Shown here: positions 7,807 to 64,000 of the stretch, in pieces | Layout of the letters: each line of letters starts with the position of its first letter | Numbering within the stretch: the first letter of the stretch is position 1 | NCBI GenBank assembly: GCA_000004985.1 | Contig: GG738847.1 | Origin: Naegleria gruberi | Taxonomy: Eukaryota | Reading direction: 5' to 3' (one strand) | DNA: 64,000 nucleotides | The notes under the pieces: model-generated | What the model saw: the letters and a program-made list of their open reading frames with translations, nothing else | What the model was told of the DNA's origin: nothing | Databases searched by the model: none | Translations under genes and position numbers: made by a program

Positions 7807-8070
7807 TTTTTTATGCTTTTGAAAATTGTTTTTTGAGCGGGAAAAGTGTTACAGTGGCGCCACAAAATTTTGATGGGTTGCTGAGGTTTCTAATGACCAT
7901 CATCATTGAAGTTTTTTCAGAAAGGAATGTATTATTTTGAATTAAACTAATGATACATCATACGTTATTCTTTTGGAAATTTGTTGTTAATGGCAAATGG
8001 ATTGAAAGTGTAGTTGAAGAGATTGAAGGCATTATGACGTGCTGATTGCAAAATAACAATCAAATAAAAC

Positions 8071-9627
8071 ATGTCTATTCGATTGAGTGGACGTTGGAAT
8101 AGTGAATTATTGAATTTGCATCTACAACAATCTCAACCTAATTCTCGGAATGATCAATCCAATAATTTGGGAAGAGTTATAAATTTGAAACATGCTTTGA
8201 ATGGAAGAAACATCAAGGATATTTCCTTGGGAGTGTATCATATGCTAATATTGACAGGTTTGTAGTTCTCCATTGATTTCAAAGTGGTTAATTGAACAAC
8301 ATGACAGACCAAGATGATATTCTGGTGGCAGGTACTAGTTTACCAATTAATGAAAAAAGTTTCCAACTCGTCCAAATTCAAGATCCAAAGAATGAGAGTA
8401 ATATTTATTTTCCCATTTATAAATTTACTCCCTCACTCTCGTCCTCACAAACACTATTTCAATCTCCACAAATAGCATGCGGTCCAGAATTCTGTATCTT
8501 TACCCAATCAGTTAAGGAAGGTAAAAATTATAGGCATTACCTTAATTTGTTTGGGTGGGATAGTAAGAAAGTATTCGATTCTCGTAGGAATACTACTAGA
8601 AACTCCCTTACAGATATTTTGCAAGGATTACTTCTCAAAAATATGATAACAGAGGAAATTCCAACAACATGTGAAGGAGATACAATTAGTCAAATAGTGT
8701 GTGGTGGAGACTTTTGGATGATTGTCATGAATAGGAAGAAGATATTCGGAAAGGTATGTTGTTGAATTTGATAAATAATATCACAACTATTCAAAGGGAT
8801 ACAATAGAGATGGTGTGCTTGGGTTAGGACACAAGAATGATTGTAAGAAAATTACAATCCTCCCTTCACAAGACATGTTCCAATGCGAGTATGATACAAT
8901 TAAGAAGGTTTCTTGTGGGCTTCACCATGCAATATTTGTCATTTCTAACCTGTTAAATTCCTCAATTCAAGTATTTACCAGTGGTGACAATAGATTTGGT
9001 CAACTTGCACATAATAATAGCAAGTTCCAAACCAAATTTTCCAAGAGTGAATCTCTAACCAATCTCATTCAGACAAACGGATTTAGAGATGTTTGTTGTG
9101 AATATCAATCTACATGGTTATTAACATCAAATAATAAGTTGTTTGCCTGTGGTCTTTTAAGTTACTCTTCGACCAATCAGTCAGTTCTACGTAAGGTACT
9201 CGTTCCTATTGAATTTAAAGTTCCATACTCGAGCTCATTGTTGTCCAATGGTTTATCTCCAAAAACATCATTTCACTTTGGATGTGGAGGATTCCATTCT
9301 GTTTTCTCCAATCATCGAAGTGATTCAATAGTAGGTATTGGAACTAACACGTGTGAGCAGCTCTTCCCTCACCAAAGTACTACAATCCAAGAGCATCAGA
9401 AGAATACTCCACCAAGTACAGTTGGAATGACAGTTGCAGTGAGCAAGCTAACTTCCATGCAACAAGAAAATAGTCCAGAGAAAATGATATTGAAGAAGAT
9501 ATTATGCTCTCGTGACTGTTCGTTCATGGTATTTGAACCATTACCTGCTATCCAGGGATTGCATGAATATTTAATCAAATCCAATAGAAAACTATCCGAT
9601 GTAGTGTTGATTACTTCCTCTTGCTGA
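8071..9627 (+). CDS. RCC1-repeat (regulator of chromosome condensation-like) protein, 3 exons
   Basis: Three ORF fragments joined by a 50-nt intron (8258..8307, donor GTTTGT) and a 43-nt intron (8754..8796, donor GTATGT, acceptor TTCAAAG). CDS = join(8071..8257,8308..8753,8797..9627), 1464 nt. RCC1 blade motifs: ALNGRNIKDISLGVYHMLILTG, IVCGGDFWMIVMNRKKIFGKGYNRDGVLGLGHKND, VSCGLHHAIFV, VFTSGDNRFGQLAHNN, FGCGGFHSVF. Confidence 0.6.
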
Positions 9628-10137
9628 GATGATGGTGATATTATTAATAAAAGCAATTCCACAGAAAATCCATCAAAATTATTATAGTTTTGATAAATAC
9701 TTGCTAGTGATAACAAGAATTAAATAATAGGATCAGAAATCTGTCTTGAACACAGAGGTTTGTTTTCATGGTTAAGTTACCGATCAACAACACGGACCAA
9801 TAAATTATCATCATCAACTTTCATTATTGGCATAACTCGTGGTAAAGATGCAATGTTGAGTTAAATTTTTTATTTTGGTTTTGAAAATATTCCAATTTAT
9901 CAAATTAATCAGCTCATCACACACCAAGAACAATTAATTTCAACTGAATATTAGCACTTCATCACAATTAATCATAAACAACAATATTGATGATTTGTAT
10001 TTTAGAAATTTTATGTTTAATAAATATTTATTTTGAAAAAGCTTAGGAACTATAAAGTTCGGTTTACAATGAGAATGCTCCACTACTAATGGAACAAATT
10101 ATATATTTACAAGAATCGCAAATTACCATTATCTAAT

Positions 10138-10554
10138 TTATGTTCTTTCACCTCTAATTCTCTTGGCCAATTGCATATCCTTTTGCATGATAGTAACTCT
10201 CTTGGCGTGAATAGCACACAAGTTAGTATCTTCAAAGAGGGAAACAAGGTAGGCTTCGGAAGCTTCTTGGAGAGCCAAGACAGCATTAGATTGGAAACGC
10301 AAGTCAGACTTGTAGTCTTGAGCAATTTCTCTGACCAATCTTTGGAATGGCAACTTTCTAATCAACAATTCAGTAGACTTTTGATACTTTCTGATTTCTC
10401 TCAAAGCAACAGTACCTGGCTTATATCTGTGTGGCTTCTTCAAACCACCAGTTGATGGTTGTTTGGCAGACTTTCTAGCAGCTTTAGAGGCCAATTGTTT
10501 TCTTGGTGCTTTACCACCTGTAGACTTTCTGGCAGTTTGTTTGGTTCTAGCCAT
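10138..10554 (-). CDS. histone H3
   Basis: [138 protein letters not shown], 138 aa, ending in TAA. ATG at 10552..10554 on the minus strand. The longer listed ORF (to 10827) is an in-frame read-through of the 5' leader. No 3' histone stem-loop downstream. Confidence 0.95.
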
Positions 10555-11193
10555 GTTGTTGTATTTTTTTCGGTTAGTTGTTCTATGATCTGGAAAGTAG
10601 AACGGAAAGGTAGCATTTATGAGGTGGTAAGATTTTCGACTTTCATGTAACGGTTTTGCAGGGCATTTTTCGTCATTAGAGTTTTCGAGCCGCTTTTCTT
10701 TCCAAGCGCAAGTGGATGCGCATTTTTGGTAGTTGTTACAATAAAATTTCTGACCAATCGTTTCAATAGAGACTGTTGTAAAGCGATTAACAATTATTTT
10801 CGTCATTTGAACATTTGGAGCCATCACAAAAATTTGTCATTACCCATTAGAATGCTCCTTCAATCGTGACCATGATGTGTTTTCACATCAAGTTGGACAA
10901 TATTCATCATCTCTTGAATATTTTCATGGAATTTAATATCTAATTATCATAACACCACAGTGTTGGATCGGAAAGTTCTTGGTCTCAACAAATAAGAAAG
11001 CCCTTCATTCACACTCACTTTAGGAGCATATAATAATGTGAAGATTCTCCAAACCAACTTTCTGTGAAGACAATTTTCATTGTATAATCTTCTCTTCTAT
11101 CGTTTCAAACAGGAGAAGAGGTTAAGTCCTTTTTTGTGTAACCCTAGTATTATACACGTAATATGATGAGCAAATTTTCATTGTGAATGTGAA

Positions 11194-11266
11194 GGGGATG
11201 TAGCTCACATGGTAGAGCGCTTCTTTAGCATGGAAGAGGTACGGGGATCGATACCCCGCATCTCCA
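11194..11266 (+). tRNA. tRNA-Ala (anticodon AGC)
   Basis: 73-nt cloverleaf GGGGATGTAGCTCACATGGTAGAGCGCTTCTTTAGCATGGAAGAGGTACGGGGATCGATACCCCGCATCTCCA. Acceptor stem GGGGATG/CATCTCC contains the G3:U70 wobble pair, the Ala identity element. Anticodon loop CTTTAGCAT. Internal A box (TAGCTCACATGG) and B box (GGGATCGATACC). No CCA encoded. Confidence 0.9.
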
Positions 11267-11426
11267 CTCAATTTTTTACCTACTTTTCAACATTTTCACA
11301 ATTTCTATTAGTAATTGTAGACTGTTCTTATTCTTGTTTCTTAACCTTTTCAAAATAAAGTACTGCAACCTAATTGTTATCTTCAAAACTCACTTCAACT
11401 CAATCAAAACAACTTCAAACAAAAAA

Positions 11427-12551
11427 ATGGGCGGAAACACAATCTCCAAAGTTACCAAAACACTTCCGAAAAATCCTGCCTCTGTTTTGCAAGAAGCAAA
11501 AGCTTCTCGTGCAGTAGCAAACAATGCTGCCAGTACATCATTTTCTTCTCCAACATCTTCATCTAAATTTTCCAAGAGAGAAGAGGAAGATAAATGGATG
11601 GAAGACCAAGCAACCAGAGTAGTCGGAGATGAACATAGAAAAGTAAGACTTGTTGGATATAATCTTCCTGGAGAGGATGTAAAATATGTTTCACGAGAGG
11701 ATTATGATGTCATGGAGGAATGGAATAATCTTGTAAAGGAGCAAGGAGTTAAAGGATTGGAACAAGTTGAAAGGGAAATGAAGGAAATGAACGATATCAA
11801 TGTTGAAGAACGTAAATATTGGGAAGAACAACAATTGAAGGAAGAATATAAAATTTCCTCTGGTGTTGCAGCAGATGAGAGCCCTGACGAATCAAATGTT
11901 AAATTAACACCAGAACAAGAATTATTAATGAAATTATCTGGAAATGCACAAGTGAAGGATTTGACAGATTCAGACAATAATAAGGAGGATGAATATGAAA
12001 AATTAGTGAGTCAAAACAAGGATGATGATTTCGTGCATCACTTACAAAATATTACTTCAACTTTCAAAGTACAAACTAATGAAGTTGAGGAAACAACAAA
12101 TACTGATTATACTAATGTAGTGGGTAAAGCTCGTGCTCGTCCATTATTCGAAGATATTCACAATGATTCTGGAAGAGTTTATTTACCACACAACAATCAA
12201 CTCAATGCTGGTGAAGATAAGGAAGAACTTGCAAGAGGAATTATAACAAGTATATCCGGTAATAATAATCCAAGAGCTGTAAGAGGTAGATTCTATCCTG
12301 ATACAGTCAAAGATGTGGAATTGAGAAAATTCTGTGATTTGAAGAGGGAATTGGAATATGCCAATACAGAACAATCGAATAAGGATGCTGAAGCTCTGCT
12401 CAAAGATTTTGCCTCACAACAAGCCATGAGTGAAGAAACATTGAAGAGTATTTTGAAATATGTAAATAGTGTGTATGTTTATTCTCCTTCTCAAAATCTT
12501 GAAAGAGATGGAGAATCGTATGGATTTTGGAATAAAATTGAAAGGCAATAA
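11427..12551 (+). CDS. hypothetical acidic E/K-rich protein
   Basis: ORF 11334..12551. Likely initiator is MGGNTISK at 11427, preceded by an A-rich leader (CAAACAAAAAAATGG). Highly charged low-complexity sequence with no recognisable domain. Confidence 0.45.
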   Translation: MGGNTISKVTKTLPKNPASVLQEAKASRAVANNAASTSFSSPTSSSKFSKREEEDKWMEDQATRVVGDEHRKVRLVGYNLPGEDVKYVSREDYDVMEEWNNLVKEQGVKGLEQVEREMKEMNDINVEERKYWEEQQLKEEYKISSGVAADESPDESNVKLTPEQELLMKLSGNAQVKDLTDSDNNKEDEYEKLVSQNKDDDFVHHLQNITSTFKVQTNEVEETTNTDYTNVVGKARARPLFEDIHNDSGRVYLPHNNQLNAGEDKEELARGIITSISGNNNPRAVRGRFYPDTVKDVELRKFCDLKRELEYANTEQSNKDAEALLKDFASQQAMSEETLKSILKYVNSVYVYSPSQNLERDGESYGFWNKIERQ

Positions 12552-25976: not shown

Positions 25977-26049
25977 GGGGATGTAGCTCACATGGTAGAG
26001 CGCTTCTTTAGCATGGAAGAGGTACGGGGATCGATACCCCGCATCTCCA
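25977..26049 (+). tRNA. tRNA-Ala (anticodon AGC), second identical copy
   Basis: 73/73 identical to the copy at 11194..11266. The 10 nt immediately 5' (GAATGTGAAG) and 6 nt immediately 3' (CTCAAT) are also identical. Confidence 0.9.
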
Positions 26050-26200
26050 CTCAATATTTTTAAATAACTTTAAATTTTTAAAAGCCTACACAAAATTAGG
26101 AAGAATAGGTCCCTATATAATATTCTCCACTCAAACCTTAAATATGATACAAAAACACATTTTACTATACTCAATGGCTGATCAAGATAAAATAAATTAG

Positions 26201-27464: not shown

Positions 27465-28826
27465 TTAATTAATTGTTGATGAGCTAATATCGCAAACCAA
27501 TCTATGAGTTTGAGATGATGGAATTGAAAAGAAAGTAACACTCAATGGCAGTTCAGTATATGAATTTCCTTGCTTTTTTGGAGAATTTAAAATTGCCACT
27601 TTTGGAGAATAATCTGTTTCAATAAATGGTAATCCAAATATTTCTAATTCGATTTTGGAGGATAATTTGAATACTGGTAACCCTGATTCAATGTGATATA
27701 ATGAATCATGAGTCATTATAAAGCTTAATCGAACACCTTCCATCTCTCTAGATTGTATTTGAGAAAATTCTAATGGTCTTGGAGTAGAGATTGTAAACTG
27801 TGCAAGACTTTGTCTGTTGAATCTGGGCATTTGAGGAGTGAATGTAATTGCATCCGAATTATTGTTGTTATATGATAACTGATGATATGTTTGTCTAATA
27901 GAATTTACACTATATTTTACACATAGGAGTTGCAGATGTTCAGCTCGAGCACAATCATTGTCTGTGAATGGAACATGATTTGTTTCAATTTGTTGTTTGA
28001 TTTGATGTAAATAGGTCACAAAGGACTTGGTATCCATTGATTTATCTGTTTGTTCCTCGTTAGTGTATTTCCGTTTAACACCTGTAGTATATGGTAGTTT
28101 TACACATTCTTTCTTGAAATATTGAAATTTGAGTGATGAATATTTCATAATATACTCCATTACTGTTGTTCTTTTCGAATACACTCGTTGTTCACCAAAA
28201 AATCCTTCTAAAGATCTTGTGCCAAACACTTGAAGTTGTGGCTGGGTATTTGGTGGTATTAAGGGAATTAATTTTGAAATTGTTTCCAAGTTATGCTTAA
28301 TCGTTGCCTTGGAAAACGTTCCAAAAATAGTAAAATTATTATTCTTGTTGGTGCTATTTACATCACTAAAGATATCATCCCACCAATCAAGAAACTCTAA
28401 TGATTGAGAAAGAATTAATAACTTGAGTGAGAGAATTTTTTGATTTCTTTGTGACTTTGTGAATGTCATCGTACGTGAAAAATCATGAATAAGTTTCAAG
28501 TAAGAATATAGACCCAAATATTTGTTGTTAGTTTGTTGATTCAATTTTGCCAATTCATTAATTAACAAGGGAGAACACACTTGCCGCAATACATCTTCAG
28601 ATTGATCATCATAATTAATAAAAGCAGACCTTCTAATAATTTTGCACCAATATGATGGATTTGTTTGGTAAATTTCATCTAATGTCTTCAGCTCAAATTT
28701 TTGTAAGAGTGATTCTTCAATTGAAATGAAAAACACATTCTCAATACTTCTATTGTTAATTGTTAAATTTGGAATACTTGTTTGGTTGGGGTTGGAGCAG
28801 AGAAAAGTTAATGATAAATTATGCAA
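27465..28826 (-). CDS. hypothetical protein, probably the 3' portion of the gene at 28940..29722
   Basis: 453-aa ORF. Its reading frame is open upstream to plus 29039 with no ATG, and it overlaps the end of the upstream ORF in a different frame. Confidence 0.4.
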   Translation of the reverse strand: MHNLSLTFLCSNPNQTSIPNLTINNRSIENVFFISIEESLLQKFELKTLDEIYQTNPSYWCKIIRRSAFINYDDQSEDVLRQVCSPLLINELAKLNQQTNNKYLGLYSYLKLIHDFSRTMTFTKSQRNQKILSLKLLILSQSLEFLDWWDDIFSDVNSTNKNNNFTIFGTFSKATIKHNLETISKLIPLIPPNTQPQLQVFGTRSLEGFFGEQRVYSKRTTVMEYIMKYSSLKFQYFKKECVKLPYTTGVKRKYTNEEQTDKSMDTKSFVTYLHQIKQQIETNHVPFTDNDCARAEHLQLLCVKYSVNSIRQTYHQLSYNNNNSDAITFTPQMPRFNRQSLAQFTISTPRPLEFSQIQSREMEGVRLSFIMTHDSLYHIESGLPVFKLSSKIELEIFGLPFIETDYSPKVAILNSPKKQGNSYTELPLSVTFFSIPSSQTHRLVCDISSSTIN

Positions 28827-28939
28827 GGAATCATCAATAGTGTAAAAAAAAGATGAGCTTGCACCATTAACAGTAGTGGATTTCTTATTGGCCCAAGAAA
28901 CAACTATTTCATCATCTCCAAGATTGAATGCAAGATTAA

Positions 28940-29722
28940 TTATAGCATCACTATATTTGTGAAATGAAAGTTTAAGTAGATGACTGTCCTCCAGTTGTTG
29001 ATGATAATGGAAGAGTGGAACGACCTGGTATTTCTTCCATTATATATCTCCTTTGATACTGATGGAAAGAGTTTTGGCTTTGTTTCAATAGCATTCCTCA
29101 AATTTTTACATAAATGAGAATAGCAAAAATGGTGAGGATATTCTGATGTTTGCCAATTAGCACCTCCTGCATCAGAAACAGTGCATGTTATTTGATTAGT
29201 ATACACATCCTTGAATTTTGTAATAACATGTTGAAGATCTTCACTTGTTTCAGACTTGCAAAACTTGAAATTGCCTGGAATTCTCAATTTTCCTTCAATA
29301 TAGAGTGTTTGGATAACCTTTTCGGCCAGAAAATTATTTTGAATAATATTATCATTAATTGTATGTGATTGTGTTATTGGAATAGGACCTTGAATAGCTC
29401 CAATTAATAATCCAGATTTACGATTAATACTTAAACTAGAGAAAAGATCCATTCCATCCACTTGCAAAATACCTAATGTAGTATTATCTATTCCAATGAT
29501 TTCACGTAGATGTGAGAAATCAGCTGCATCTAAAGAAGTATCACCATAGCCAACATTTGGGTGATGAAAATGATTATCAAGCGTAGAAGAACATGGAAGT
29601 ATTAAATTACAATAGTATGCAGATGTGTCAAATTTTTCTGAATTTCCAGTCATATATCCTCTTCCGATAGCTTCATAAAGATTATAACCCATAGCTGCTA
29701 GCAAATCTTGACCATGATACAC
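28940..29722 (-). CDS. hypothetical protein, probably the 5' portion of one gene continuing into 27465..28826
   Basis: 260-aa ORF. The last ~30 aa (WRTVIYLNFHFTNIVML) look non-protein-like, while the alternative frame over the same bases continues cleanly into the downstream ORF. Confidence 0.4.
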   Translation of the reverse strand: MYHGQDLLAAMGYNLYEAIGRGYMTGNSEKFDTSAYYCNLILPCSSTLDNHFHHPNVGYGDTSLDAADFSHLREIIGIDNTTLGILQVDGMDLFSSLSINRKSGLLIGAIQGPIPITQSHTINDNIIQNNFLAEKVIQTLYIEGKLRIPGNFKFCKSETSEDLQHVITKFKDVYTNQITCTVSDAGGANWQTSEYPHHFCYSHLCKNLRNAIETKPKLFPSVSKEIYNGRNTRSFHSSIIINNWRTVIYLNFHFTNIVML

Positions 29723-30118
29723 AAAATTATGAATATTGGGTCATGTTCAACAAGTACATGTTGTTGCACTACTCTGAAGGTCAAAGTTCTTGACAATAAT
29801 AATCTAGATTATGTTAATTATCCATGTGGTTGGTATACATGCCTGGGCGAAACCAGGAAATATTGGATTCATCCACAAGGTATTCCTTTGGAAGGGTCGG
29901 AAAGTACTTTTTATTTGACCAGCACAATGAATTATTGGAACGTGTTGAAATGAATGACAATACGTACATTATTTTCAAGTATTTGCACTTGTTTTTTCCA
30001 AACTACATTCAATACGACCAACGTTATCATCATCAAATCATGCAATCACCAAATCACAACACCATCACAATCATCACAACGGTGCCATCAAATAGCTTAA
30101 AAAAAAATCATCAAAAAT

Positions 30119-32248
30119 ATGAAACATACCTTCCTTCGTAAAATCAATAGATTGCAGTTATTTACTGCATCACCCAAAATCAACAGATCAATATTAAAAA
30201 TTAATAATTTAACTAATGATATTAACAAGTTTACAATTAATAGAGTGAATCAAACTAAAAACTATTCAAATACATTAAAACCAACAACAAATAATGTTGA
30301 AAATATTAAATTTAAAAATATTGGTGACCGAAATTTGTTGGTGCCATATTTTCCATATGGTGAATCAGATTTTGCTTCCATCAGAAGAAGTAAACAATTT
30401 TATGTTGATAAAACTAATTTAATTCCTCTATTAGAAGAAAGTGGAAAACAATTATTTTTTGTTCGTCCTCCGAGATGGGGAAAATCACTATTATTATCAA
30501 TGCTTTCATCATATTATGATGTTAACAAGAAAGATGAATTTGATGAATTATTTTCTGGTTTATGGATTGGTGATGAAAATAATTGGACACCTGGAAAGAA
30601 TCAATATTATGTTTTAAAGTTAGATTTTTCTATTCAAGTTGATGGTACTGCTGATGATATTAATCAACGACTTCACACAAAAATCAATACAACCATTGAA
30701 GGATTTTTGGAATGTTATGGTATGGGTGGTGAGGTTAGCATTAATCAAAATGATTCATTTGATACTTATCAAAAACTTATCCAACTTTTAGTCAAGAGAA
30801 AAGGCAAATTAATGGTATTAATTGATGAATATGATAGATTTGCAAACAAATTAATGTTTGAAAATCCTGAAAAATATCAATTAATAGTTGAAGGAAAGAG
30901 AGGAGATCCAACATCTTCACCAATTCGTTCTTTCTTTGAAAGATTGAAAGAGTCTTCCGCTACTGGTTTACAAGATTTTCGTAGTATCATCACTGGTATC
31001 ACTCCTATTGCTCTTGCTGATGCATCTGGATATAATGTTTCCAGTAATATTTCCTCTGATAAGATATTTGGTGGTTTGGTTGGTTTTACAGAAAATGATT
31101 TGAGAATGGCATTAAATAACATTGATATTATTGGAAATGATCAAGATATTACCATTTCAACCATGAAAAAGTATTATAAAGGTTATCATTTTCCTGGTTC
31201 AAAACATGCTCTATTCAACACAACTCTTTCAATGTTCTTTTTGAACAAACTTGTAAAAGATGAACCTTTCAGAAATGCTGTTCTACAAAAACAAGAAATT
31301 CCATTATCAATATTAACAGATACCAACACAATGATCAGTGAGAACGTTTTTGCAACTTTGGCATCATCAGTTGTATCGAATGATATTATTCAACAATTAC
31401 TTTCAAAAGATTATGTAGAAGTAACAGAGTCAATTTATCCTTCACTGAAATTAAGAGAGATTATTGATCCACCATCCAATGAAGAAGATATACAAAAGAT
31501 TCGTGATAATGCTTTATCATTCATGTATTATCATGGTATGATTACTTTCACAGAATCATCCTCAAAACAAATGAATCCAAAACAATTGTTAATTCCAAAT
31601 GAAATTGCAAAGGTTCAATATTTGGAACAGTTACGTAGACTTATATCTTTACGTGAAAGTGATATATCAACTTTTATTAATGAACCAACTCAAGATAATT
31701 TGAAAAAATTACTTTGGAGTATTTTAAGCAAGCAAGAAACAGTGTTTGACAATGATATGTCTGAAGGAGGTTTACAATCTTGTATTGAATCTGCATTGAG
31801 ATCATATTCTTTATATAGAAGCAAAGATTTTACTCTTAGAGCAGAAAAGGAATATACAAATTATCATATCAATGGAAAAGAATATACTGAATTAAGAGCT
31901 GACCTTGTTATTTCAACCGACAATGACATATTTATCATTGAATTGAAACATTTGAGACCAATGTATTTATCACAATATTCTACTATTAGAATTTGGAAAC
32001 CTTATATGTTTAAGGAAAAATTTAAAGAATTATTACAAGCTGATGAAAGCCAGTTATTGAATATGCTAGTTTTTCAAAAATGGGCAAACAAATATGTTAA
32101 AGTTGAAAGTATCTTAAATGAGGCAAGTTCTAAGGTTAAACAATATGCCAAAAAAGAACAAGAATTACTTGGCAATAATGATAAAACTATCCACAAGTTC
32201 GTTGTCATTCAAGTTGGTTGGCCTCTTATTGTGAGGAAAGTAAATTAA
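30119..32248 (+). CDS. bacterial-type AAA-ATPase-like (PF09820-like) plus PD-(D/E)xK nuclease-fold (PF08011/PDDEXK_9-like) protein with eukaryotic N-terminal extension
   Basis: 709-aa intronless ORF. After a ~75-aa basic N/K-rich extension, the sequence LLVPYFPYGESDFASIRRSKQFYVDKTNLIPLLEESGKQLFFVRPPRWGKSLLLSMLSSYYD matches the N-terminal signature of the predicted AAA-ATPase family (P.G..DF..I.....YYVDKT..I..L......F..RPRRFGKSL..S.L..Y). The C-terminus carries a PD-(D/E)xK core: ELRADLVISTDNDIFIIELKH...VIQVGW. Confidence 0.8.
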   Translation: MKHTFLRKINRLQLFTASPKINRSILKINNLTNDINKFTINRVNQTKNYSNTLKPTTNNVENIKFKNIGDRNLLVPYFPYGESDFASIRRSKQFYVDKTNLIPLLEESGKQLFFVRPPRWGKSLLLSMLSSYYDVNKKDEFDELFSGLWIGDENNWTPGKNQYYVLKLDFSIQVDGTADDINQRLHTKINTTIEGFLECYGMGGEVSINQNDSFDTYQKLIQLLVKRKGKLMVLIDEYDRFANKLMFENPEKYQLIVEGKRGDPTSSPIRSFFERLKESSATGLQDFRSIITGITPIALADASGYNVSSNISSDKIFGGLVGFTENDLRMALNNIDIIGNDQDITISTMKKYYKGYHFPGSKHALFNTTLSMFFLNKLVKDEPFRNAVLQKQEIPLSILTDTNTMISENVFATLASSVVSNDIIQQLLSKDYVEVTESIYPSLKLREIIDPPSNEEDIQKIRDNALSFMYYHGMITFTESSSKQMNPKQLLIPNEIAKVQYLEQLRRLISLRESDISTFINEPTQDNLKKLLWSILSKQETVFDNDMSEGGLQSCIESALRSYSLYRSKDFTLRAEKEYTNYHINGKEYTELRADLVISTDNDIFIIELKHLRPMYLSQYSTIRIWKPYMFKEKFKELLQADESQLLNMLVFQKWANKYVKVESILNEASSKVKQYAKKEQELLGNNDKTIHKFVVIQVGWPLIVRKVN

Positions 32249-32353
32249 ACATTTCATAAAATAAAATGTTAAGAATGGAACTGGGTTTGATGAGAAGTTT
32301 TTTGTTGATCATTTGTAAAATATTAAAAGGAATACATCAAACGTGCTGATCTT

Positions 32354-32686
32354 GTGATAAGAACTTCTAAAAAAGTATTAATAATTGAATTCAAACGTAT
32401 TAGACCAAATTCTTTAACAAAATATTCCAATATTGAATATTGGAATCCGCAAATTTTTAAAAATATATTTAAAGATTTATCTAAACAAACTGATGAAGAA
32501 TTATTAGAAATGGAAGTACTTACTCATGCCAAAGAGAAAGTTGTAGCCAGATCAATTTTGAATTCTGCAATTTCTCAAGTCAAACAATATGCTCAATATG
32601 AAAATGATGCTGACAAATCAAAAAGCATTCATAAGTATGCAGTGATACAAGTTGGTTGGCCCTTAATTGTAAGAAAATTGAATTAA
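32354..32686 (+). pseudogene. tandem partial duplicate of the PD-(D/E)xK C-terminal module of the upstream gene (gene fragment)
   Basis: 110-aa ORF. VLIIEFKRIRPNSLTKYSNIEYWNPQIFKNIFKDL...SQVKQYAQYEND..KSIHKYAVIQVGWPLIVRKLN aligns collinearly with DIFIIELKHLRPMYLSQYSTIRIWKPYMFKEKFKEL...SKVKQYAKKEQ..KTIHKFVVIQVGWPLIVRKVN at the end of 30119..32248. It lacks the ATPase-like N-terminal two thirds. Confidence 0.6.
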
Positions 32687-33317
32687 AATGTTTGCTGCAA
32701 CTAAAAGAACTTTCTACAGTTGCTCTCTTTATCACTAAATAAAAAGTTGAATGATGTATAGACAACTTTCGTGTAAAAACTTGTTCTCCAGACATGCTCA
32801 TCTCCTAAATGAAAAGATAAAAATCTTTGAACAAAGTGCGCCAGGTTTCGAGATGAAAAAGTTGTCAATATTTCACTATTCTGTTATCTCTAATGATGGC
32901 AGGTTTTGGGATAACAATTTCAAGGATTAGGAAATTGAGTGTTTGCATAGAATCACAATACATCAACAAGCAATACATGAACCAACGCTTAATATTATAA
33001 GGTAATATAGAATGATGTTCACGTATACAAGTCAAACACATCCCTCAGCAACTGTCAAATGTCATGCTTTGGGACTCGCAATATTAATGTGTAGTTTTTG
33101 GCGAGGATCATCTCTTGATGGAATAACAAATAAGAGATTATCTCAAGATAAAATATATTATTTGGATTCTCAAATCTAAGTGTCTGTATTTATTTTTTAT
33201 TTTATATTGAATGTTGGTAAAATCTCCCGAAAACCCAAGTATTGACATCCATTGACTGCTTAGTTTTCAGCCAAAACTTGCTTTGGTTTCAAGCCGATAA
33301 AATCCCACTAAAAGTAC

Positions 33318-34108
33318 TAGGGCAAAATAATTTAATTCCGATCACATTCAAATTCCGATCATTGGTGTAGAAATAAATTGTTGATTTATTTGAAATGTCA
33401 TTGGGAAGTCATGGCTCTTTCTCTCCACAATCAATACATAAGATGTTGGTAATCTCTTTTCCATTGATTGTTTCTGTTGATGGCATTGTACATGTTTTGG
33501 AATGGCATAATTTTTTACAAGTAGAGCATGTCATTATCGTCTTTAAATTTACATCCATAGTAGCAGCATATATTTTGTGATGATGATGCACTTGGAGAGG
33601 AGGTTGGATTTCTATCCATAGTATATCCACTAACAATATTATGATGGGTTAGAATTTTCATATGCTTCATGTAATATCTTTGTAAAGTCTTTTTTGGATT
33701 ATTTTCACTCCTTTAATTCATCCTCTTCCTCTTTAGTAAAGTAGGTCTTTCTACCAGCATGTGAATTAATTGATGATCTTCCATTTACTAGATCATTAAA
33801 AGTTGTATATGGAATGTCGAATTTTTTGGCTACGCTTCTGATGGAGGCACCATTTGTGGTATTTTAATATTCTAATGCTTTATCTCTCTTCTCCTCCTCC
33901 TCCTGTTGCTGTTGTTCATGTTCCTGCTTTTTTGTTAATTTCTTCTTAATCATGATGATGAAGGTGATCGGAATTATATTTTTTTCATATTAAAAATGGT
34001 TGTAAACTTTGGTAATTTTGTTGTACATAAAAACTTTGAAAGTTTACTATTAAAATTGTTCAAGATGATCGAAAATCGAGGTGATCGGAATTGAAATATT
34101 TTGCCCTA
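33318..34108. mobile_element. non-autonomous TIR DNA transposon relic (pogo/Tc5-like), about 790 bp, with 28-bp terminal inverted repeats and TA flanks
   Basis: Left end TAGGGCAAAATAATTTAATTCCGATCAC (33318..33345). Right end GTGATCGGAATTGAAATATTTTGCCCTA (34081..34108), whose reverse complement is TAGGGCAAAATATTTCAATTCCGATCAC: 26/28 matches with one indel. Read as TA|GGGCAAAAT...ATTTTGCCC|TA, this gives TA target-site duplications. Subterminal direct repeats GTGATCGGAATT / TTCCGATCA occur twice at each end. Confidence 0.6.
33696..33944 (-). pseudogene. relic of pogo/Tc5-family transposase N-terminus (HTH_psq type), interrupted by an in-frame TAA
   Basis: Minus-strand translation: MIKKKLTKKQEHEQQQQEEEEKRDKALEY*NTTNGASIRSVAKKFDIPYTTFNDLVNGRSSINSHAGRKTYFTKEEEDELKE*. 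This matches the psq/CENP-B-type HTH pattern (..AlEa..nG.SIRkAAK.fgIP.sTL.drl.Gr....GR...LT.EEE..L). It lies inside the TIR element. Confidence 0.55.
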
Positions 34109-34739
34109 ATGATACATTTTAAATTGTGCAATTTGGAATTTGCTTTGGGTATAGTGTTGAACACATTTTCAAGTTGACTATTGTAAAGTTTAAATGTTTC
34201 GTCTACAGTTTAATTAACGTTGAAAAGAGTTCGTGTGAGTACTTCTGTAAGGCTTGCGTAATGTAAAAAGGGAGATGTTGGAACGAGGTATCAAGTTCCT
34301 TTGAATTAAACTGAACTAAACGAAACATTACAATAATACTATTAAACAATATGTTGAACAACTACAGTTATTGATTGTTTCAAAAAGTGATCACTCAAAA
34401 TTGACTGGTACTATACTGTTAGAGATCATTCTCCAGAATGGCAATACCTCATTGTTTGTGGTGGCAGTTGACATGAGAACCTCGCATTCCCTTCGCCAAT
34501 CATTAGAAAAAAAACACACACATCCCAACGAGCTAGCACACATAAATAGACGCTGCAACTAGTTCACTGACCATCCATCATCAGAATCGCAGCAAATATA
34601 TTCCACATCATCATTTCGTACATAAAATTAAAGTACTTGCCTCGATATAAAGTATTTCTTCATCTCACAACAATTTATACCTTCGAGAGGAATAACATCA
34701 ACAACAACAAACTGACATATTATCATATTATATATTGAC

Positions 34740-36707: not shown

Positions 36708-36788
36708 GTTGAGGTGGCCGAGTGGTTAAGGCGCCAGCCTGCTAAGTTGGTGGAGTAATCCGCGTGGGTTCGAATCCCATCCTCAACG
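36708..36788 (+). tRNA. tRNA-Ser (anticodon GCT)
   Basis: 81 nt: GTTGAGGTGGCCGAGTGGTTAAGGCGCCAGCCTGCTAAGTTGGTGGAGTAATCCGCGTGGGTTCGAATCCCATCCTCAACG. Acceptor GTTGAGG/CCTCAAC. Long variable arm (class II). Anticodon loop CTGCTAA. Discriminator G. Confidence 0.9.
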
Positions 36789-51680: not shown

Positions 51681-52154
51681 TTACATTTTAATTTCCTTGT
51701 GAATGATAGAAGAGAATTGGATCCAATCCAATGCTGCTTGAATATCTTGTTCATATTGTGGATCCTGATCAAGTGTCCACGTGGTAAAATCATTGAATGT
51801 ATGCACACAACTTTTATCTTCATTGATGATGTATCCAGTTACTTGGAGTGGTGTTTCTTGTTGTTCGGAGAGAATAATCTTCTTTCCTTGAAGAGGTCTT
51901 CCTCTGAATGAACCTTCCAATATCGATTCATCATTACTATTTGGTTTTATATTAGGTTCAAAGTATTCCTCCACTTTGGCTTCCCCATCATGGTCAATGT
52001 GGCAAGGTAAGTGATGTATCTTTAGAGAGTCATCCGTTGAGTTTAATAATTTAATTTCCAACACATCATTATTTGAAATCATTTTTTGGAGGGAAAAATT
52101 AGGAGTGAAAGTGGTAATGTTATTGAAACAATTTACCAAACAAAATAAATTCAA
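51681..52154 (-). CDS. ribonuclease H2 non-catalytic subunit C-like protein
   Basis: KIHHLPCHIDHDGEAKVEEYFEPNI...ILEGSFRGRPLQGKKI...VTGYIINED and FNDFTTWTLDQD...ALDWIQFSSIIH align with human RNASEH2C ([24 protein letters not shown]...LEVSFRGRCLRGEEV...VGYVMVTEE; FSRFTLWGLE...ALTWPSLAAAIH). The true start Met may be internal (MISNND). Confidence 0.65.
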   Translation of the reverse strand: MNLFCLVNCFNNITTFTPNFSLQKMISNNDVLEIKLLNSTDDSLKIHHLPCHIDHDGEAKVEEYFEPNIKPNSNDESILEGSFRGRPLQGKKIILSEQQETPLQVTGYIINEDKSCVHTFNDFTTWTLDQDPQYEQDIQAALDWIQFSSIIHKEIKM

Positions 52155-52410
52155 TGAAACCTACAGAATTAACTTTGAATTAAAATTGAATCTAATTGTT
52201 TTGGTTATATTAGTTTCTGTTATCATAAGAATGTCTAAGGGTGAAATAGGTTTTGATAGTTTGAGTTACAATTTTAATTAATAATTATTGCATTTCGGAA
52301 ATGATTTTTAATTGTTTTTTTATTGAGCAAAGTAGCCAATCTATTTAGTGTTTTTGAAAATTTAAAAGGTAAGAAGAGAAAAGAAAACTGTGATGAAGTG
52401 AAAGTAAAAT

Positions 52411-52857
52411 TTAAGCAAGGACGATACCCATAGTACGGTTGTAATTATTTTCCTTGATTTTTTGTCTTCTCATCAATTTATGCATTCTCTTTACTTCCGC
52501 AAAGGTTAATTGTTGTCCACTGGCCTTCTTTGACTTGAGTTGTTCGAGAGAAAGGTCTGTTGCTCTAGAAATTTCCAATAACCATTCTGGATAAGCTTCT
52601 GGGGCTTTAATAACTGGGTTTTTACCTTCCTTCAAAATGTTGATGTTGAGTTCGTGTCCTTCTTGACCAAATCCTTTCGAGCCTTTTGGTGCTTCAGGTC
52701 CGTACTTTTTTACTAAATCTTTAATTTCTTGCTTTGATAATGATTTGATTGCAACCAATCTATTTGTTCGCAATTGGCTTGTGCATATCGAAATTTTGAG
52801 AGTGTTATTATTGTTGAGGCAAGGTGAAAGGACTTTGGTGGAGAGTTGTTTCAGCAT
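52411..52857 (-). CDS. mitochondrial ribosomal protein mL54 (MRPL54/yeast Mrpl37 family)
   Basis: 148 aa. ELNINILKEGKNPVIKAPEAYPEWLLEI matches the mL54 signature [26 protein letters not shown]. Basic presequence-like N-terminus. Confidence 0.7.
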   Translation of the reverse strand: MLKQLSTKVLSPCLNNNNTLKISICTSQLRTNRLVAIKSLSKQEIKDLVKKYGPEAPKGSKGFGQEGHELNINILKEGKNPVIKAPEAYPEWLLEISRATDLSLEQLKSKKASGQQLTFAEVKRMHKLMRRQKIKENNYNRTMGIVLA

Positions 52858-52907
52858 TTTTTAAATTAAAAAACAAAATTTTTAATTAAATAAAAAATTG
52901 AATAATC
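52858..52907. promoter_or_regulatory. 50-bp AT-rich divergent intergenic region shared by the mL54 gene and the ISD11-like gene (putative bidirectional promoter)
   Basis: Start codons of two head-to-head genes lie only 50 nt apart (52857 on minus, 52908 on plus). Sequence TTTTAAATTAAAAAACAAAATTTTTAATTAAATAAAAAATTGAATAATC. Confidence 0.3.
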
Positions 52908-53117
52908 ATGTCTACTATTATTCGTTCTCCTGTTCATCTCTACAGAATTCTTCTCAAGCACACTCAATCTAACAAAATATTCGGAAATGAAAAAGTGAGA
53001 AATTATACATTTAACAAAATTAGAGAATGTTTTAGGGATGCTAGAAATTCCGATATTGCTTTCCAACAATTACAATATCAAAGAGCCATACAATTCTTGA
53101 CTGTCACTTCTCGGTAA
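52908..53117 (+). CDS. LYR-motif protein, ISD11/LYRM4-like
   Basis: 69 aa. Contains L-Y-R (VHLYRILLKHTQ), then F..R.Y...KIRECFRDARN. Collinear with ISD11: LDLYRAMLRESKHF..NYRTYAVRRIRDAFRENKN. Confidence 0.65.
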   Translation: MSTIIRSPVHLYRILLKHTQSNKIFGNEKVRNYTFNKIRECFRDARNSDIAFQQLQYQRAIQFLTVTSR

Positions 53118-53412
53118 TTAATTGTTAGTATTCAAAATAAATTATTATTATTTAATTGGAATCTAATCATTTGCCATCTCATTCAATATCACAATTATTG
53201 ATGCATTAAAAAGATAGAAATCACACTTTCATTCCACCATCAACTTTGAAAACAACCTTCTCCAAAGAAAAGACCTTCTTGTTGCTATTTTTATTTTCAC
53301 TTATTATCCAAGCATGTCAACTACTGAAATATACCTTTGTTGTATGGAGTATTGTTTCTTAGAAGATATTGAGGTTGTTTTGTATTGTGAGGGTTAAGTA
53401 CGCGCAAAAAAA

Positions 53413-56400
53413 ATGTCTGAAGAGGAAGTGAGAGAAGACCCAACAACTGAATGGTTGTTCGGGAAAGTGATGCACAACATTAAAATCAACAAGACAAAAT
53501 GGAATGAATTCAGAACTAGTGAGGAAACAAGGTAAGTGTAGTATTAGGATTTGGACCTATATGAAAATGATCAGAGTTAAAATACAAAAATTCCTTACAG
53601 TGGAATCAGAAATGATGTTGTTTTTTATTAAGAGCAAAGAAAAAGAAGAAATAATAGTATCTGCGGAACCAGTTATTGGAGGTCATAAAAAAGGAATTGT
53701 GTTTTTGAAACATTCCCCTATCAAAATCACCACAGATAATTATGTAGAATCTCTATTTTATGAGGATGTTTTTGCTGATCCTCTTTTAAATTTACAAAGA
53801 ATTGTGGAAGGAGTTTATCTTCCTCTCCTTCAATCACCAAAGAATCAAAAAGGATGGCCAAATGTAGTGGCTCAAGATTTGATAAGACAATTCCATCGAT
53901 TTACAGGAATGTTAGATTTATTTATTGGACATACTAGAGGATCTGTAGTTTTACCAATGCCACCCGTTGATGAAACAGTGGAAACGGCTTCTCAAGATAG
54001 ATCCCTTGTTCATGCTTTTGAAACTTCAGTAATAGATTGGAGTAAGGAAACAAGGAAAGTAATAGAGTTGGATTCTGATAAAATATTGGATGAATTGGAA
54101 AAGGAAGAAAAATATCAAGGACCTCTTTTTGAAATTGATTTTTGGCAAGCAAAGAAAACAAAATTGACTGATCTTGCTCATCAATTATCAAATGACAGAG
54201 TGAAAATGGTGATTTCAACATTAGAAAAAACTCAAAGTTCATATGTTACCGGATTCAAGAAAATGTTGGATGATTTAAATTTTGCATTGGATGAATCTGA
54301 AACAATTTCCAAATATTTCGAACCTCTAAGAAAGTATTTCCAAGATTTGAATGATTCAACAATATCAGTTTCTGATCTTGGAGAAGTTTTTAAACCAATT
54401 CTACATTTAATTTCATTGATGTGGAGAAAGTGCGAGTATTTCAACACAGGTCATTTATATGTTCTCATAAGAGAGATTTGTAATGATATTGTTACTAGAA
54501 TTTATAATTATATTGAACCATCAGAGCTATGGACTAATCCTATGAAAGTTGTTGCAGAAAAACTTCAAATTTCATTTAATGGATGTGAAGAATTCAAAGT
54601 ATTATTTTTCCAATATAGGGATATTGTAAATAGAACTAATCCTCAAAAAACTTGGAAATTTGAAAGTTCTAAGGTTTTTACTAGGTTGAACTTATTTATC
54701 GAGAGATTACACGATTTAAGAACAATTGCTTTGTATATAGATGATTTCTTATCACTCGATAAATTTGATATTGGTGGTGTGAATGGAGCAGAATTAACTG
54801 GTATGATGTCTCAACTATTTGAAGAATTTGTAGATCAACAACAAAAGATTCAAAACGTTAGTTATGATGTACTTGATTTGAAAGAGGAACAATTTGAGAG
54901 AGATTTTTACAAATTCTGTGATGCTATTAATGACTTTGATAAGAGAATTTGCTTCATGATTAATAAGGCATTACAATTGAATACTGGATTCAAGTTTACT
55001 TTTAAACTTTTAGAAAGCTTTGAGTCTCAAGCAAGAAGAGAAAAAATCAGGCAAGAAATTGAGGGTAAAATTTCCAACATGTTATCGGTATATTCAGAGG
55101 AAATAACAAAAGTGTCAACAATATTTAACAAGAACAAAGAAAATCCTCCTTTATTAGATAACTTCCCAAAGGTTTCTGGAGCTATTGCTTGGTGTTATTC
55201 ACTGAGAGAAAGAGTAACATGGCCATTAGAAAAATTTAAAGAGCAACCTTTTCTAACCACCAGCTCTGAATTACAAGATATCATCCAAAGACATGAGAAA
55301 CTGATGGCTCAGATGAAAAAATATGAGGATGAGATTTTCAATTCTTGGAAGGAGCAGCTTAATGTAAATAGTTTATCCCATCTCAATGATAATATTATTT
55401 CCAGAATGCCAGATAAAAGATTGGTGGTTAACTTTAATCCAGAACTGAGTTTCTGTATTCAAGAAGTAGAACATTTGAAACCTTATGCAAACGCAGTTCC
55501 AGAAGAGGCGATTGCACTCTTTGAAAAAGGGGATATTTACAGAGCTAAAGTCGCAACAATGGATCTTATGGTTCGTCAGTACAACACTGTAATTCAAACA
55601 TTGATAGATGTAGAAAAGCCTCTTTTGGCCGATAGATTAACCACTGTAGATAACATTTTGGTGGAGTCTACTGAAAAATTAACGTGGCAAAGCGATATTG
55701 ATAATTTTATATTACAATCTAGGGAAAATGTGAGAGACATTTACAATAGAACAAACTTCCTTAAAGGGAATGTTAAAACAATCGAAAAAATGGTTGAGAG
55801 CTGGATGACTATTTCTAATTTAATAATTACTGATAACTCTGGTATTGAGGAGATGAAAGAGAAAAAGGCCAGCAAAATATTTGATATGGTTGGATTTTGG
55901 AGACAATCTACTGACTCCAATCCAACTTTCAAAGTCTATTCTCAATGGAAGTCAAAAGTCTCAGCCAATATCAAAAAGTTGAGTGATGTTATTATCCAAA
56001 GTGAAAGAATTGGTCATATTATGGAAAGCAGCCGTCTCAAAATTTGTCCACAAAGCTCATCAGAGGAATGGAATAATTATTGGAGAAATTATGTTCTCTT
56101 TGTAAATAGTATTATTGAAAAGGGAGTATTTAATGCTGTAAGAGAAGGATTGACATTTTTAATTAACTCATTCTCAGGAAAAAATGATATGATTGCTTTG
56201 AACTCCAAAACACTGAGTAATATCTTCATAACTGTCAAACTAGAACTCTATTCTAATGATGCTGTATTCACCCCAAACTTGATTGAGAGTACAAACAGTG
56301 TTCATAATAGTGTAAAAATTTGGGTCAGTAGAGTCATTGGCTTAGCATCCATGGTAAAGAGATTAGATGAAGTTACAACTTTCGAAAAGGTCATCAAAGA

Positions 56401-62400: not shown

Positions 62401-64000
62401 CAACTGTACTCAAATCGATTTCTTCTTCCCTTGGCCAAAAGAAGCCTTATTGAGCGTTGCTGATAAGTTCTTGAAACCTGAAATGCCAATTACTGGAGAA
62501 CACCATCCATCAATTGTAAAAGCAATGGCATTCACTCATGAAAAAGTCAATGAATTTAGCTCTAGATTCCTCAACGAACTTGGTAGATATACCTATACTA
62601 CTCCAAAGAGCTATCTTGAATTCTTGAAACTGTACAAATCTCTTCTTTACAAAAAGAGAGAGCTTATCAAGGGTTTAATTGATAGATTGAGCCAAGGTAT
62701 TCAAAAATTGAGGGATACCACCATGAACGTAACCAAATTACAAAAACAATTGGAAACGCAAGAAAAGGAGGTCAAGGAAAGAGAAATAGCAGCCGATATT
62801 ATCTTGGAGAAAGTTAAAAAGGAAAGAACAGTTGTGGAAGCAGAAAACAAAAAAGCTCTCACAGAAGAAAAATTCGCCCAAGAAATCAACCAACAAGTTG
62901 CTCAACAAACAGCAGAGTGTGAGGGAGAAGTTGAAAAAGCCAAACCAATCCTTGAAAAAGCAGAATTGGCTCTTCAAACTCTTAACAAGACTGAATTGAC
63001 AGAACTTAGGTCCTTCAGAACTCCAAACGTCAATGTACTTCTTGTATTCCAAGCTGTGCTTATTTTACTAAGTACAAAGTCTGGTGTAACAAAAGATTTG
63101 AGTTGGTCTGCAGCTCAGAAGGCTATGGCTCGTGGTTCTGATAAGTTCTTGGCTGTATTGGAAGCATATGATTCCAAGAATATCTATCCTCACATCCTTA
63201 CCGCTATCCAACCGTTCATGGATAATCCTAAATTCACAGGTGAGGAAATCAGAAAACATTCATCAGCTTCTGGAGGTTTATGTGAATGGGTCAGAAACAC
63301 TATTGAATATAATAAGACATTCGTAGCAGTGAAGCCAATGTTTGACAGCTTGGAAAAATCCAAACTTGAAAAGGCAGCAGCAGAAGAAAAATTGGCTAAA
63401 GTAAGAAAAACAGTAGCTAAATTGAATAAGCAGTTAAAGAAGATTGAAGGTGATTATCAAGCAGCAGAAGATGAAAAGAATGCCGCTCTTGACATTGCTA
63501 AAAAGACTCAAGAAAAATTGGACTTGGCTCAACGTTTTGTTCGTGCTTTGTCATCTGAAAATGCTCGTTGGTTGGAGGAAATTCAAAAACTACAAACTCT
63601 TAACAATGTATTAATAGGAGATGTACTTCTTGCGTCTGCCTTTATTTCATATGCTGGTAGTTTTGATATGAGATTTAGAACAGAGCTCACAGAAGCATGG
63701 AAACAAGAAATTATTGGAGAGTTAAAGATTCCAACTTCTGAAAATCTTAATTTGTTAGAAGTTATGACTGATGATGCTGAAATAGCTAAGTGGGGTAATC
63801 AAAAACTTCCATCAGACAAAACAAGTATTGAAAACGGCTGTATTTTATTGAATTGTGAAAGATGGCCTCTGGTTGTAGATCCTCAGCTCCAAGCCATTAC
63901 ATGGATTAAGAACCATTACAAAGATTTAATAATACTGAGATTAGAACAACCAGATATCATTGAAAAAATGGAACGAGCCATTCAAAAAGGCCAAACAGTT
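53413..64000 (+). CDS. axonemal outer-arm dynein heavy chain, 5' partial (continues past window end)
   Basis: ATG at 53413. First intron 53519..53600 (donor GTGAGG, acceptor TTACAG, frame verified). One continuous frame then runs to 64000. AAA1 region LTDRIYITLTQSLHLIMGGAPAGPAGTGKTETTKDLGSQLGKSVYVFNCSDQMNNESLADIFKGLASSGAWGCFDEFNRI (P-loop at ~59099). This is the TETTKDL/FNCSDQ axonemal form, not the cytoplasmic TESVKAL form. AAA2 GPAGSGKS (~59942). AAA3 ANAGVGKT (~60914). AAA4 VGVGGSGKQS (~61951). It ends in the post-stalk region ...DPQLQAITWIKNHYKDL...IEKMERAIQKGQTV. Confidence 0.9.

Follow-up and report, generated by a model that had tools for sequence, protein, structure and literature searches.

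A nuclear gene for a predicted DUF1703-type ATPase-nuclease in Naegleria gruberi: eukaryotic relatives, a presequence-like leader and a mosaic 3′ end

The DUF1703-type gene and the modules of its product

We analysed a 64,000-nt stretch of Naegleria gruberi DNA (GenBank assembly GCA_000004985.1, contig GG738847.1; henceforth, the window) around a gene for a predicted ATPase-nuclease of the DUF1703 family, the family that combines the Pfam domains PF09820 and PF08011 and was defined by Knizewski et al. 2007 (PMC1913061). The initial annotation, made from the window sequence alone, had taken this gene for a bacterial import, acquired by horizontal transfer and then domesticated with a newly added eukaryotic leader. 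Judged by the sequence comparisons reported below, it belongs to an old branch of DUF1703 confined to eukaryotes and is not a recent bacterial import. The coordinates of the gene, of its modules and of other features in the window are collected in Table 1.

The open reading frame (ORF) agrees exactly in position, strand, length and start codon with the one first described, and the motifs quoted for its product were all located: FPYGE (residues 78-82), RPPRWGKS (116-123), DEYD (236-239), RADLVI (593-598) and IIELK (606-610). The product is the orthologue of N. gruberi NAEGRDRAFT_78045 (P0002), with 82% identity over 100% coverage, and is 86% identical to a protein encoded on a metagenome contig (P0001). 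As stated at the outset, the surroundings are those of a eukaryotic nuclear genome: the window is AT-rich (GC content 0.29-0.37) and includes a histone H3 gene, two genes for tRNA-Ala and one for tRNA-Ser. That the gene is a single intact ORF was likewise borne out, although its lack of introns carries no information here. A foreign composition, which the comparison with neighbouring genes might have revealed, was not found. Of 23 long ORFs in the window, none is as AT-rich as this gene, whose GC content is 0.288 and whose GC content at third codon positions (GC3) is 0.186 (GC3 of the other 22: 0.277 ± 0.043); since its GC3 is below that of all the others, there is no bacterial compositional signal.

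Table 1. Features of the gene, its 3′ surroundings and the remainder of the window (positions in the window; aa, amino acids)
Feature	Position	Strand	Remarks
Complete intronless coding sequence	30119..32248	+	709 aa plus stop, ATG start; from the ORF listing; DUF1703-family ATPase-nuclease (predicted)
N-terminal extension	30119..30349	+	Residues 1-77; presequence-like, rich in K, R and N
PF09820 (AAA-ATPase_like) domain	30353..31021	+	Residues 79-301; Pfam match
Walker A, RPPRWGKS	30464..30487	+	Residues 116-123; non-canonical
Variable helical insertion	30659..30838	+	Residues 181-240; lies between strand β2 and the Walker B strand
Walker B, DEYD	30824..30835	+	Residues 236-239
Lid and helical middle region	31022..31738	+	Residues 302-540; AlphaFold2 secondary structure, high pLDDT
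PD-(D/E)xK nuclease domain (predicted)	31739..32245	+	Residues 541-709; motif I E549, motif II D595, motif III E608-L-K610
Divergent 3′ cassette	31498..32326	+	Codons 461-709, stop and 78 nt of 3′ flank; replaces reference-type sequence
Displaced 3′ end of the reference-type gene, now an orphan	32327..32689	+	Last 120 codons, KEYIKRADLVI to stop
Histone H3 gene	10144-10551	-	89% identity; adjoins the first tRNA-Ala gene
tRNA-Ala(AGC), two genes	11194-11267 and 25977-26050		About 15 kb between them
tRNA-Ser(GCT)	36708-36788

In a profile search, PF09820 matches the protein at E 1.1e-41 with 143.3 bits, well above the gathering cutoff of 26.1 bits, over profile positions 1-199 of 201; the assignment of the ATPase module thus stands as originally made. 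Its Walker A motif fits the DUF1703 signature RPRRFGKS (PMC1913061). In an alignment of 69 eukaryotic and bacterial homologs (A1), R116, P117, R119, G121 and K122 are invariant, as are D236 and D239 in the Walker B motif, where E237 and Y238 are nearly so. The full-length AlphaFold2 model has a predicted local distance difference test score (pLDDT) of 86.1 and a predicted template modelling score (pTM) of 0.83, and is confident save for the disordered residues 1-72. The model places helices at residues 178-199 and 213-226 in the variable insertion, and the stretch between the PF09820 match and the nuclease domain (residues 302-540) corresponds to domain 2 and the α-helical linker as described for DUF1703 (PMC1913061).

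A search of the PDB with the protein sequence gave no significant match. By structural comparison, the solved structures closest to the ATPase module are the archaeal PF01637-type proteins SSO1545 and PAB2304 (values of 16.7 and 16.5), followed by plant nucleotide-binding leucine-rich repeat proteins (NLRs) and CED-4 (14-14.7), BrxC of the BREX system (13), ORC/Cdc6 (origin recognition complex; 11-12.6), the transposition ATPases TnsC (10.2-12.4) and MuB (9.5), and Avs3/4/5 (9-11).

The C-terminal domain is predicted to adopt the PD-(D/E)xK nuclease fold. The fused ATPase-nuclease architecture of the initial annotation is upheld in so far as a PF09820 module is joined to a PD-(D/E)xK domain, the latter recognised by profile-profile comparison, motifs and predicted fold; PF08011 itself was not matched above threshold. 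The full protein gave no PF08011 match at E ≤ 0.01, nor did its last 209 aa at E ≤ 10, and the latter matched only NERD, below threshold (E 0.0014). No eukaryote-type homolog has a precomputed PF08011 hit, and NCBIfam yielded zero matches to the protein. About 45 aa are inserted after strand β3 (the ExK strand) relative to the bacterial domains, which may be why PF08011 is missed. When the C-termini of eukaryotic and of bacterial, PF08011-bearing homologs were re-aligned independently and the two profiles compared with hhalign, they matched with a probability of 96.9% (E 1.4e-10), and a hidden Markov model of the bacterial C-termini finds the C-terminus of the gene product at E 1.6e-9. E549, D595 and E608-L-K610 are all in place and conserved, E549 and E608 being nearly invariant among the 69 homologs (consensus GxxDLxL...ELK). 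The nearest structural relatives of the nuclease domain are CinB and restriction enzymes. In two N. lovaniensis paralogs (P0008 and P0009), the catalytic Asp and Lys are gone (GSSLLI...IIEFTR), so both proteins are likely to be inactive as nucleases.

A eukaryotic branch of the family

The next-best homologs are those of N. fowleri (60% identity) and Willaertia magna (53%), and three paralogs in N. lovaniensis (40-47%). Other eukaryotic homologs occur in Balamuthia mandrillaris, in Amoeboaphelidium occidentale, in an MMETSP transcript and in the red alga Pyropia yezoensis, as well as in the EukProt transcriptomes of Clydonella sp. and Flabellula baltica. Further homologs were found on metagenome contigs together with genes for retrotransposon reverse transcriptase/integrase, ankyrin, INTS8, Ras and ion-channel proteins, gene content by which we consider these contigs to be eukaryotic. 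Eukaryotic homologs (34-37% identity; Balamuthia: E 1e-93) are closer to the query than any bacterium, the best bacterial matches being at 30-33% identity and E 1e-56. The nearest named bacteria are Desulfamplus, Desulfosarcina and Candidatus Electrothrix (Desulfobacterota) and the purple sulfur gammaproteobacterium Halochromatium, not the gut Bacteroidetes and Firmicutes of which the architecture had been called typical. In all, an exhaustive search returned 6501 cluster representatives (at 50% identity) with E ≤ 1e-3. One family member, P0148 (1428 aa), is a fusion variant in which the whole ATPase-nuclease unit (residues 809-1427) stands behind an uncharacterised N-terminal region of some 800 aa.

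In an unrooted neighbour-joining tree of the 95 best hits that are near full length, 47 eukaryote-type and 48 bacterial-type sequences fall on either side of a split with a bootstrap of 100/100. Heterolobosea are monophyletic (100/100); within them, N. gruberi and Willaertia are grouped together (100/100), with N. fowleri and N. lovaniensis outside this group. Willaertia magna (L003) carries a head-to-tail tandem pair of full-length members (7853-9868 and 10001-12046) and N. lovaniensis three copies, which, along with the heterolobosean branching order, indicates long-standing duplication in this lineage. Synteny comparison with the N. lovaniensis (L002) and Willaertia (L003) loci revealed nothing shared beyond the gene itself.

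The eukaryotic sequences thus form one clade apart from the bacteria, and homologs are present in every sampled Naegleria species, in Willaertia and in other supergroups. Because of this broad presence and the support for a single eukaryotic clade, the proposal that the gene was transferred into this host and domesticated there is refuted. The eukaryotic clade as a whole may descend from a single, ancient bacterial source. Transmission by a giant virus found no support: contigs in IMG/VR (each up to 57 kb) give only bacterial-type relatives, with 24-32% identity over long matches and higher identity, up to 49%, over short N-terminal segments only, and BFVD offers no more than a weak match to Sylvanvirus (E 9e-6, 12% identity).

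Leader and mosaic structure

The bacterial family members begin 2-20 residues (median 6) ahead of the conserved PYG..DF..IR start of PF09820, compared with a median of 38 and up to 123 residues for the eukaryote-type members. The 77-aa leader thus has no bacterial counterpart, as had been noted. It must be translated, since no further Met precedes the Walker A motif and an alternative start is lacking. The leader is rich in K, R and N (14 K/R and 15 N in 77 aa; 7 K/R and no D/E in the first 30 residues), in line with its first description; it is acid-free for the first 33 residues only, with D34, E61 and D70 following. In the AlphaFold2 model, residues 1-67 and 69-72 have pLDDT values under 50. 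The leader is not a Naegleria addition, contrary to what had been assumed, because most of the eukaryotic clade carries the extension.

We analysed the leaders by composition and hydrophobic moment. Among the 41 full-length eukaryote-type leaders listed, 30 have 3 to 8 K/R and no D/E in the first 30 residues; MLVRRAFAGRRFLSTTTR (P0018), MFPVFFRRVALSSAALRRFAATR (P0026) and MLSVRRGAVVPRFARG (P0031) are examples with presequence-like character. Heterolobosean leaders include ...CCIRRFSTM and ...SIRRFSTT in N. lovaniensis and ...TIRSFSTT in N. fowleri. IRRFSTT presents an R-3-type cleavage context, and KNYSNT in the leader of the gene aligns with RRFSTT of its orthologues. Similar leaders (...QQRLFSTL, ...VRNFSSS, ...KRSFGTQ) are found on N. 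gruberi proteins assigned to mitochondria by isotope-tag-based mapping of organelle proteins (LOPIT), in the portion of that dataset consulted (PMC8134430). The leader most likely directs import into mitochondria and would be removed there, a well-supported reading. The organelle-targeting peptide suspected initially is, in fact, the best available explanation for a basic, acid-poor extension that occurs clade-wide and is absent in bacteria.

The locus was compared at the DNA level with the metagenome contig that encodes P0001 (L001). At a breakpoint near 31497/31498, nucleotide identity falls from about 100% to 90% and then to 50-65%. Synonymous divergence (dS) from the reference type is 0.014 in codons 1-460 and 0.73 in codons 461-709. 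Between the diverged C-terminal types (codons 461-709), the ratio of nonsynonymous to synonymous substitution rates (dN/dS) is 0.37, a value that rules out, on average, positive selection acting on the exchanged C-terminus. In its nuclease domain (residues 561-709), the gene product is 50% identical to the NEG-M and L001 types and 54% to N. fowleri, and the NEG-M-type domain shares 60-72% identity with the Willaertia copies. As the NEG-M type is nearer to Willaertia than to the type carried by the gene, the two C-terminal types are very old.

The 3′ end that this divergent cassette replaces is still present. An orphan segment that starts 78 nt past the stop codon of the gene is 100% identical in nucleotide sequence to L001 4934-5320, and its translation is the C-terminus of P0001 and P0002. 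It has stop codons ahead and no ATG, and matches PF08011 weakly (E 0.007). In addition, the variable insertion in the ATPase module (residues 181-240) is 55% identical to the NEG-M protein and 98% to P0001/L001, between flanks with 96-100% identity. With this insertion and the C-terminal cassette, at least three module combinations occur in N. gruberi-like genomes. The mosaic testifies to recombination between old alleles or paralogs. The present layout could have arisen either by insertion of a diverged cassette that displaced the old C-terminus, or by partial deletion of a tandem pair like that of Willaertia.

Directly after the orphan, a 255-bp segment (32720-32973) is inverted with respect to L001 5319-5574, and the sequences are collinear again at 32969-33242. 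This inversion showed no inverted repeats at its flanks. Sequence found upstream of the gene in L001 occurs in the window in two places, inverted just upstream of the gene (29727-29871; L001 2897-3035) and in direct orientation some 2 kb downstream (34107-34461; L001 1144-1495), and the remaining L001 flanks are missing from the window. Either the region has been locally rearranged or the metagenome contig is a chimera. An element of about 790 bp (33318-34108) resembles a miniature inverted-repeat transposable element (MITE): it has 28-nt terminal inverted repeats (TAGGGCAAAATAATTTAATTCCGATCAC, 93% complementary) and a related internal repeat copy at 33959-33985.

Predicted mitochondrial role, alternatives and neighbouring sequences

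Taken together, we favour, with somewhat better than even confidence, the interpretation that the gene encodes an ATP-gated DNA endonuclease with an ATPase of the STAND (signal transduction ATPases with numerous domains) or ORC type, imported into mitochondria and belonging to an old eukaryotic clade. The presequence of about 77 aa would direct the protein into the mitochondrion and be removed there. The STAND/ORC-like AAA+ module would bind ATP by way of the invariant K122 and of D236/E237, and ATP binding would bring about a conformational switch or assembly on DNA; this could position or license the active site formed by E549, D595, E608 and K610, upon which DNA would be cut. The target would be DNA in the mitochondrion, either in recombination and repair of mitochondrial DNA (mtDNA) or in the clearing of damaged or foreign DNA. 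The eukaryotic clade would have been founded once, long before the split of Naegleria and Willaertia, with duplication, loss and recombination among diverged copies thereafter. Family membership, fold, conservation of the catalytic residues, the leader across the clade and the wide occurrence in eukaryotes are shown here; import, ATP-gated nuclease activity and substrate are what we infer. Some 35% identity is kept across supergroups, and together with the dN/dS value between the C-terminal types, this speaks for a cellular function rather than decay.

Several observations weigh against this interpretation. The ATPase and nuclease activities are read from motifs, as no DUF1703 member has been biochemically characterised, and the family is atypical in its Sensor I and II residues (PMC1913061). 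The nearly invariant Gln of nuclease motif IV, kept in the NEG-M, N. fowleri, Willaertia and Balamuthia proteins, is replaced in this allele by K672 (32132-32134). Within the eukaryotic clade, one subclade (P0033, P0034, P0036, P0037, P0039, P0044 and P0045) has acidic N-termini, and the extension is absent from P0016 and P0046. The examined part of the LOPIT table of N. gruberi mitochondrial proteins (PMC8134430) contained no sequence strings of the NEG-M orthologue. The tree, being unrooted and locally sampled, names no donor and is compatible with descent of the eukaryotic clade from the mitochondrial ancestor, with one later transfer and with spread from eukaryote to eukaryote. Regarding other organisms, the supplement to the Andalucia godoyi mitochondrial proteome gave no match to the protein.

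The main rival explanation, which we deem unlikely, assigns the protein to the cytosol or nucleus as an NLR/Avs-type protein for immunity or allorecognition: a STAND ATPase would sense non-self, oligomerise and activate the nuclease, and the leader would be no import signal. The structural proximity of the ATPase module to NLRs, CED-4/Apaf-1, Avs3/4/5 and BrxC speaks for it, as does a nuclease effector closest to CinB and restriction enzymes; expansions of paralogs, including the catalytically depleted P0008 and P0009 and the Willaertia tandem pair, and the two mosaic modules (residues 181-240, and the nuclease domain with its orphan displaced C-terminus) would suit such a protein too. However, the C-terminal repeat or sensor domain of NLR and Avs proteins is lacking, PADLOC models gave zero matches, the leader keeps its presequence-like character from one supergroup to another, and the C-terminal types, compared with each other, show a dN/dS below 1. 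We consider it very improbable that the gene belongs to a selfish mobile element, whether as a transposition-target ATPase like TnsC, MuB or IstB or as an element-encoded nuclease moving in amoeba genomes. The window holds one copy and one fragment, with no terminal repeats around the gene and no adjacent transposase or integrase domain; gene and leader have been conserved over long times, and the N. lovaniensis and Willaertia loci share no syntenic repeat structure.

If the Naegleria lineage had recently taken up a bacterial DUF1703 gene by horizontal transfer and a eukaryotic leader had been added later, this would account for a gene that is intronless, that has bacterial matches at the identity given above, and that comes from a family overwhelmingly prokaryotic among the cluster representatives retrieved and bacterial in the literature. 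Such a transfer is nonetheless highly unlikely, given that the homologs in all sampled Naegleria, in Willaertia, Amoebozoa, an aphelid and other protists form one clade (100/100), are closer to the query than any bacterium and for the most part carry the extension, and that the GC3 of the gene lies below that of its neighbours. For bacterial contamination, an assembly artefact or a decaying pseudogene, the bacterial-type family assignment alone can be cited, and the chance of any of these is negligible: the gene sits inside 64 kb of AT-rich eukaryotic sequence that also carries tRNA and histone H3 genes, the 709-aa ORF is intact with all catalytic motifs, codons 1-460 are about 99% identical in DNA (dS 0.014) to an independent metagenome contig, and over this same range, outside residues 181-240, the protein matches the NEG-M protein at 96-99%.

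Organelle-targeted fusions of an ATPase and an endonuclease have a precedent in MSH1 of plants and algae, a MutS ATPase joined to a GIY-YIG endonuclease, with demonstrated function and localisation. The Naegleria protein resembles MSH1 in concept, by analogy, as a bacterial-type ATPase-endonuclease fusion with patchy occurrence in eukaryotes, an N-terminal organelle-targeting peptide and action on organelle DNA, the last two being predictions for the Naegleria protein. The folds are unrelated: ABC/MutS and GIY-YIG in MSH1, AAA+/STAND-like and PD-(D/E)xK in the Naegleria protein. In bacterial polymorphic toxin loci (Rhs, CdiA), displacement of C-termini leaves orphan modules behind. Similarly, in the Naegleria gene, a diverged cassette with its own stop replaces the C-terminus and the old 3′ end lies just downstream as a promoterless orphan. 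Unlike the toxin loci, this is a single instance in a eukaryotic host, with no immunity gene, and tandem duplication followed by deletion could give the same layout.

Within DUF1703, expansions have been described in Cardinium, Rickettsia and Simkania, and intragenic recombination has been reported for the paralogs in Cardinium and Rickettsia (PMC6387759). The Naegleria gene is like these in forming paralogs that recombine within the gene. It differs from bacterial DUF1703 members in belonging to a clade found in eukaryotes only, in its presequence-like extension of 20-100 aa, in the insertion of about 45 aa after β3 and a PF08011 score below threshold, and in being nuclear with host-like codon usage. 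From PF01637 proteins (SSO1545, 2fna; PAB2304, 2qen) and STAND NTPases (NLR, CED-4/Apaf-1, Avs, MalT), it is set apart by the lack of sequence-level membership, by its non-canonical Walker A motif, by the absence of a repeat-type sensor domain and by a C-terminal rather than N-terminal effector. The PD-(D/E)xK modules of Wolbachia CinB/CidB, type II/IIG restriction endonucleases (BpuSI, SwaI), Cas4, NucS and Hjc are also among the closest known systems. Neither the window protein nor two bacterial homologs matched any model in PADLOC-DB 2.0. PF09820 is listed among the ATPase domains of RADAR RdrA, PARIS and Old-tin (PMC10952713); no such match was seen here.

DUF1703 is a large family of fused ATPase-nucleases without an experimentally known function for any member. 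The branch delineated here is coherent, old and found only in eukaryotes, and is concentrated in amoeboid protists, including Balamuthia and the genus of the brain-eating amoeba. Its recognition corrects the tempting reading of the gene as a recent bacterial transfer. Should the mitochondrial localisation hold, an uncharacterised ATP-dependent nuclease would join the mtDNA toolkit of several protist lineages, and the eukaryotic branch would offer a tractable entry point into the function of the whole family. The mosaic of near-identical and anciently diverged modules, moreover, bears on genetic exchange in Naegleria. Literature searches with the locus tag and with the terms Naegleria, horizontal gene transfer and AAA-ATPase returned nothing specific; the family itself is known, and the eukaryote-specific, probably mitochondrial variant was not found described in the searchable literature.

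A more speculative extension, to which we accord a low probability, is that the eukaryotic DUF1703 clade serves in organelle-resident DNA surveillance. An imported STAND-like ATPase-nuclease would guard mtDNA from foreign, damaged or competing DNA, and the DNA-contacting modules (residues 181-240 and the nuclease domain) would persist as ancient exchangeable variants within one species, exchanged through the insertion of cassettes, with orphan C-termini as the remnants. If true, this would parallel, in a eukaryote, the C-terminal displacement of polymorphic nuclease toxins in bacteria.

Directly upstream of the gene, two adjacent ORFs of 453 and 260 aa lie on the same strand at 27465-29722 (-). 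They contain no Pfam domain, and only two homologs were found, a Logan contig protein (99%) and a hypothetical protein of N. lovaniensis (42%). Contig L001 lacks the region, as apparently does the annotated NEG-M proteome, and it may represent a strain-variable or mobile gene. A P-element-like transposase, suspected from a motif, could not be supported for these ORFs. At the distal end of the window, a very long ORF (53504-64000 (+), more than 3499 aa) runs past the window end, and GC skew is strongly positive (0.11-0.24) at 52001-60000 and weaker onward to the window end.

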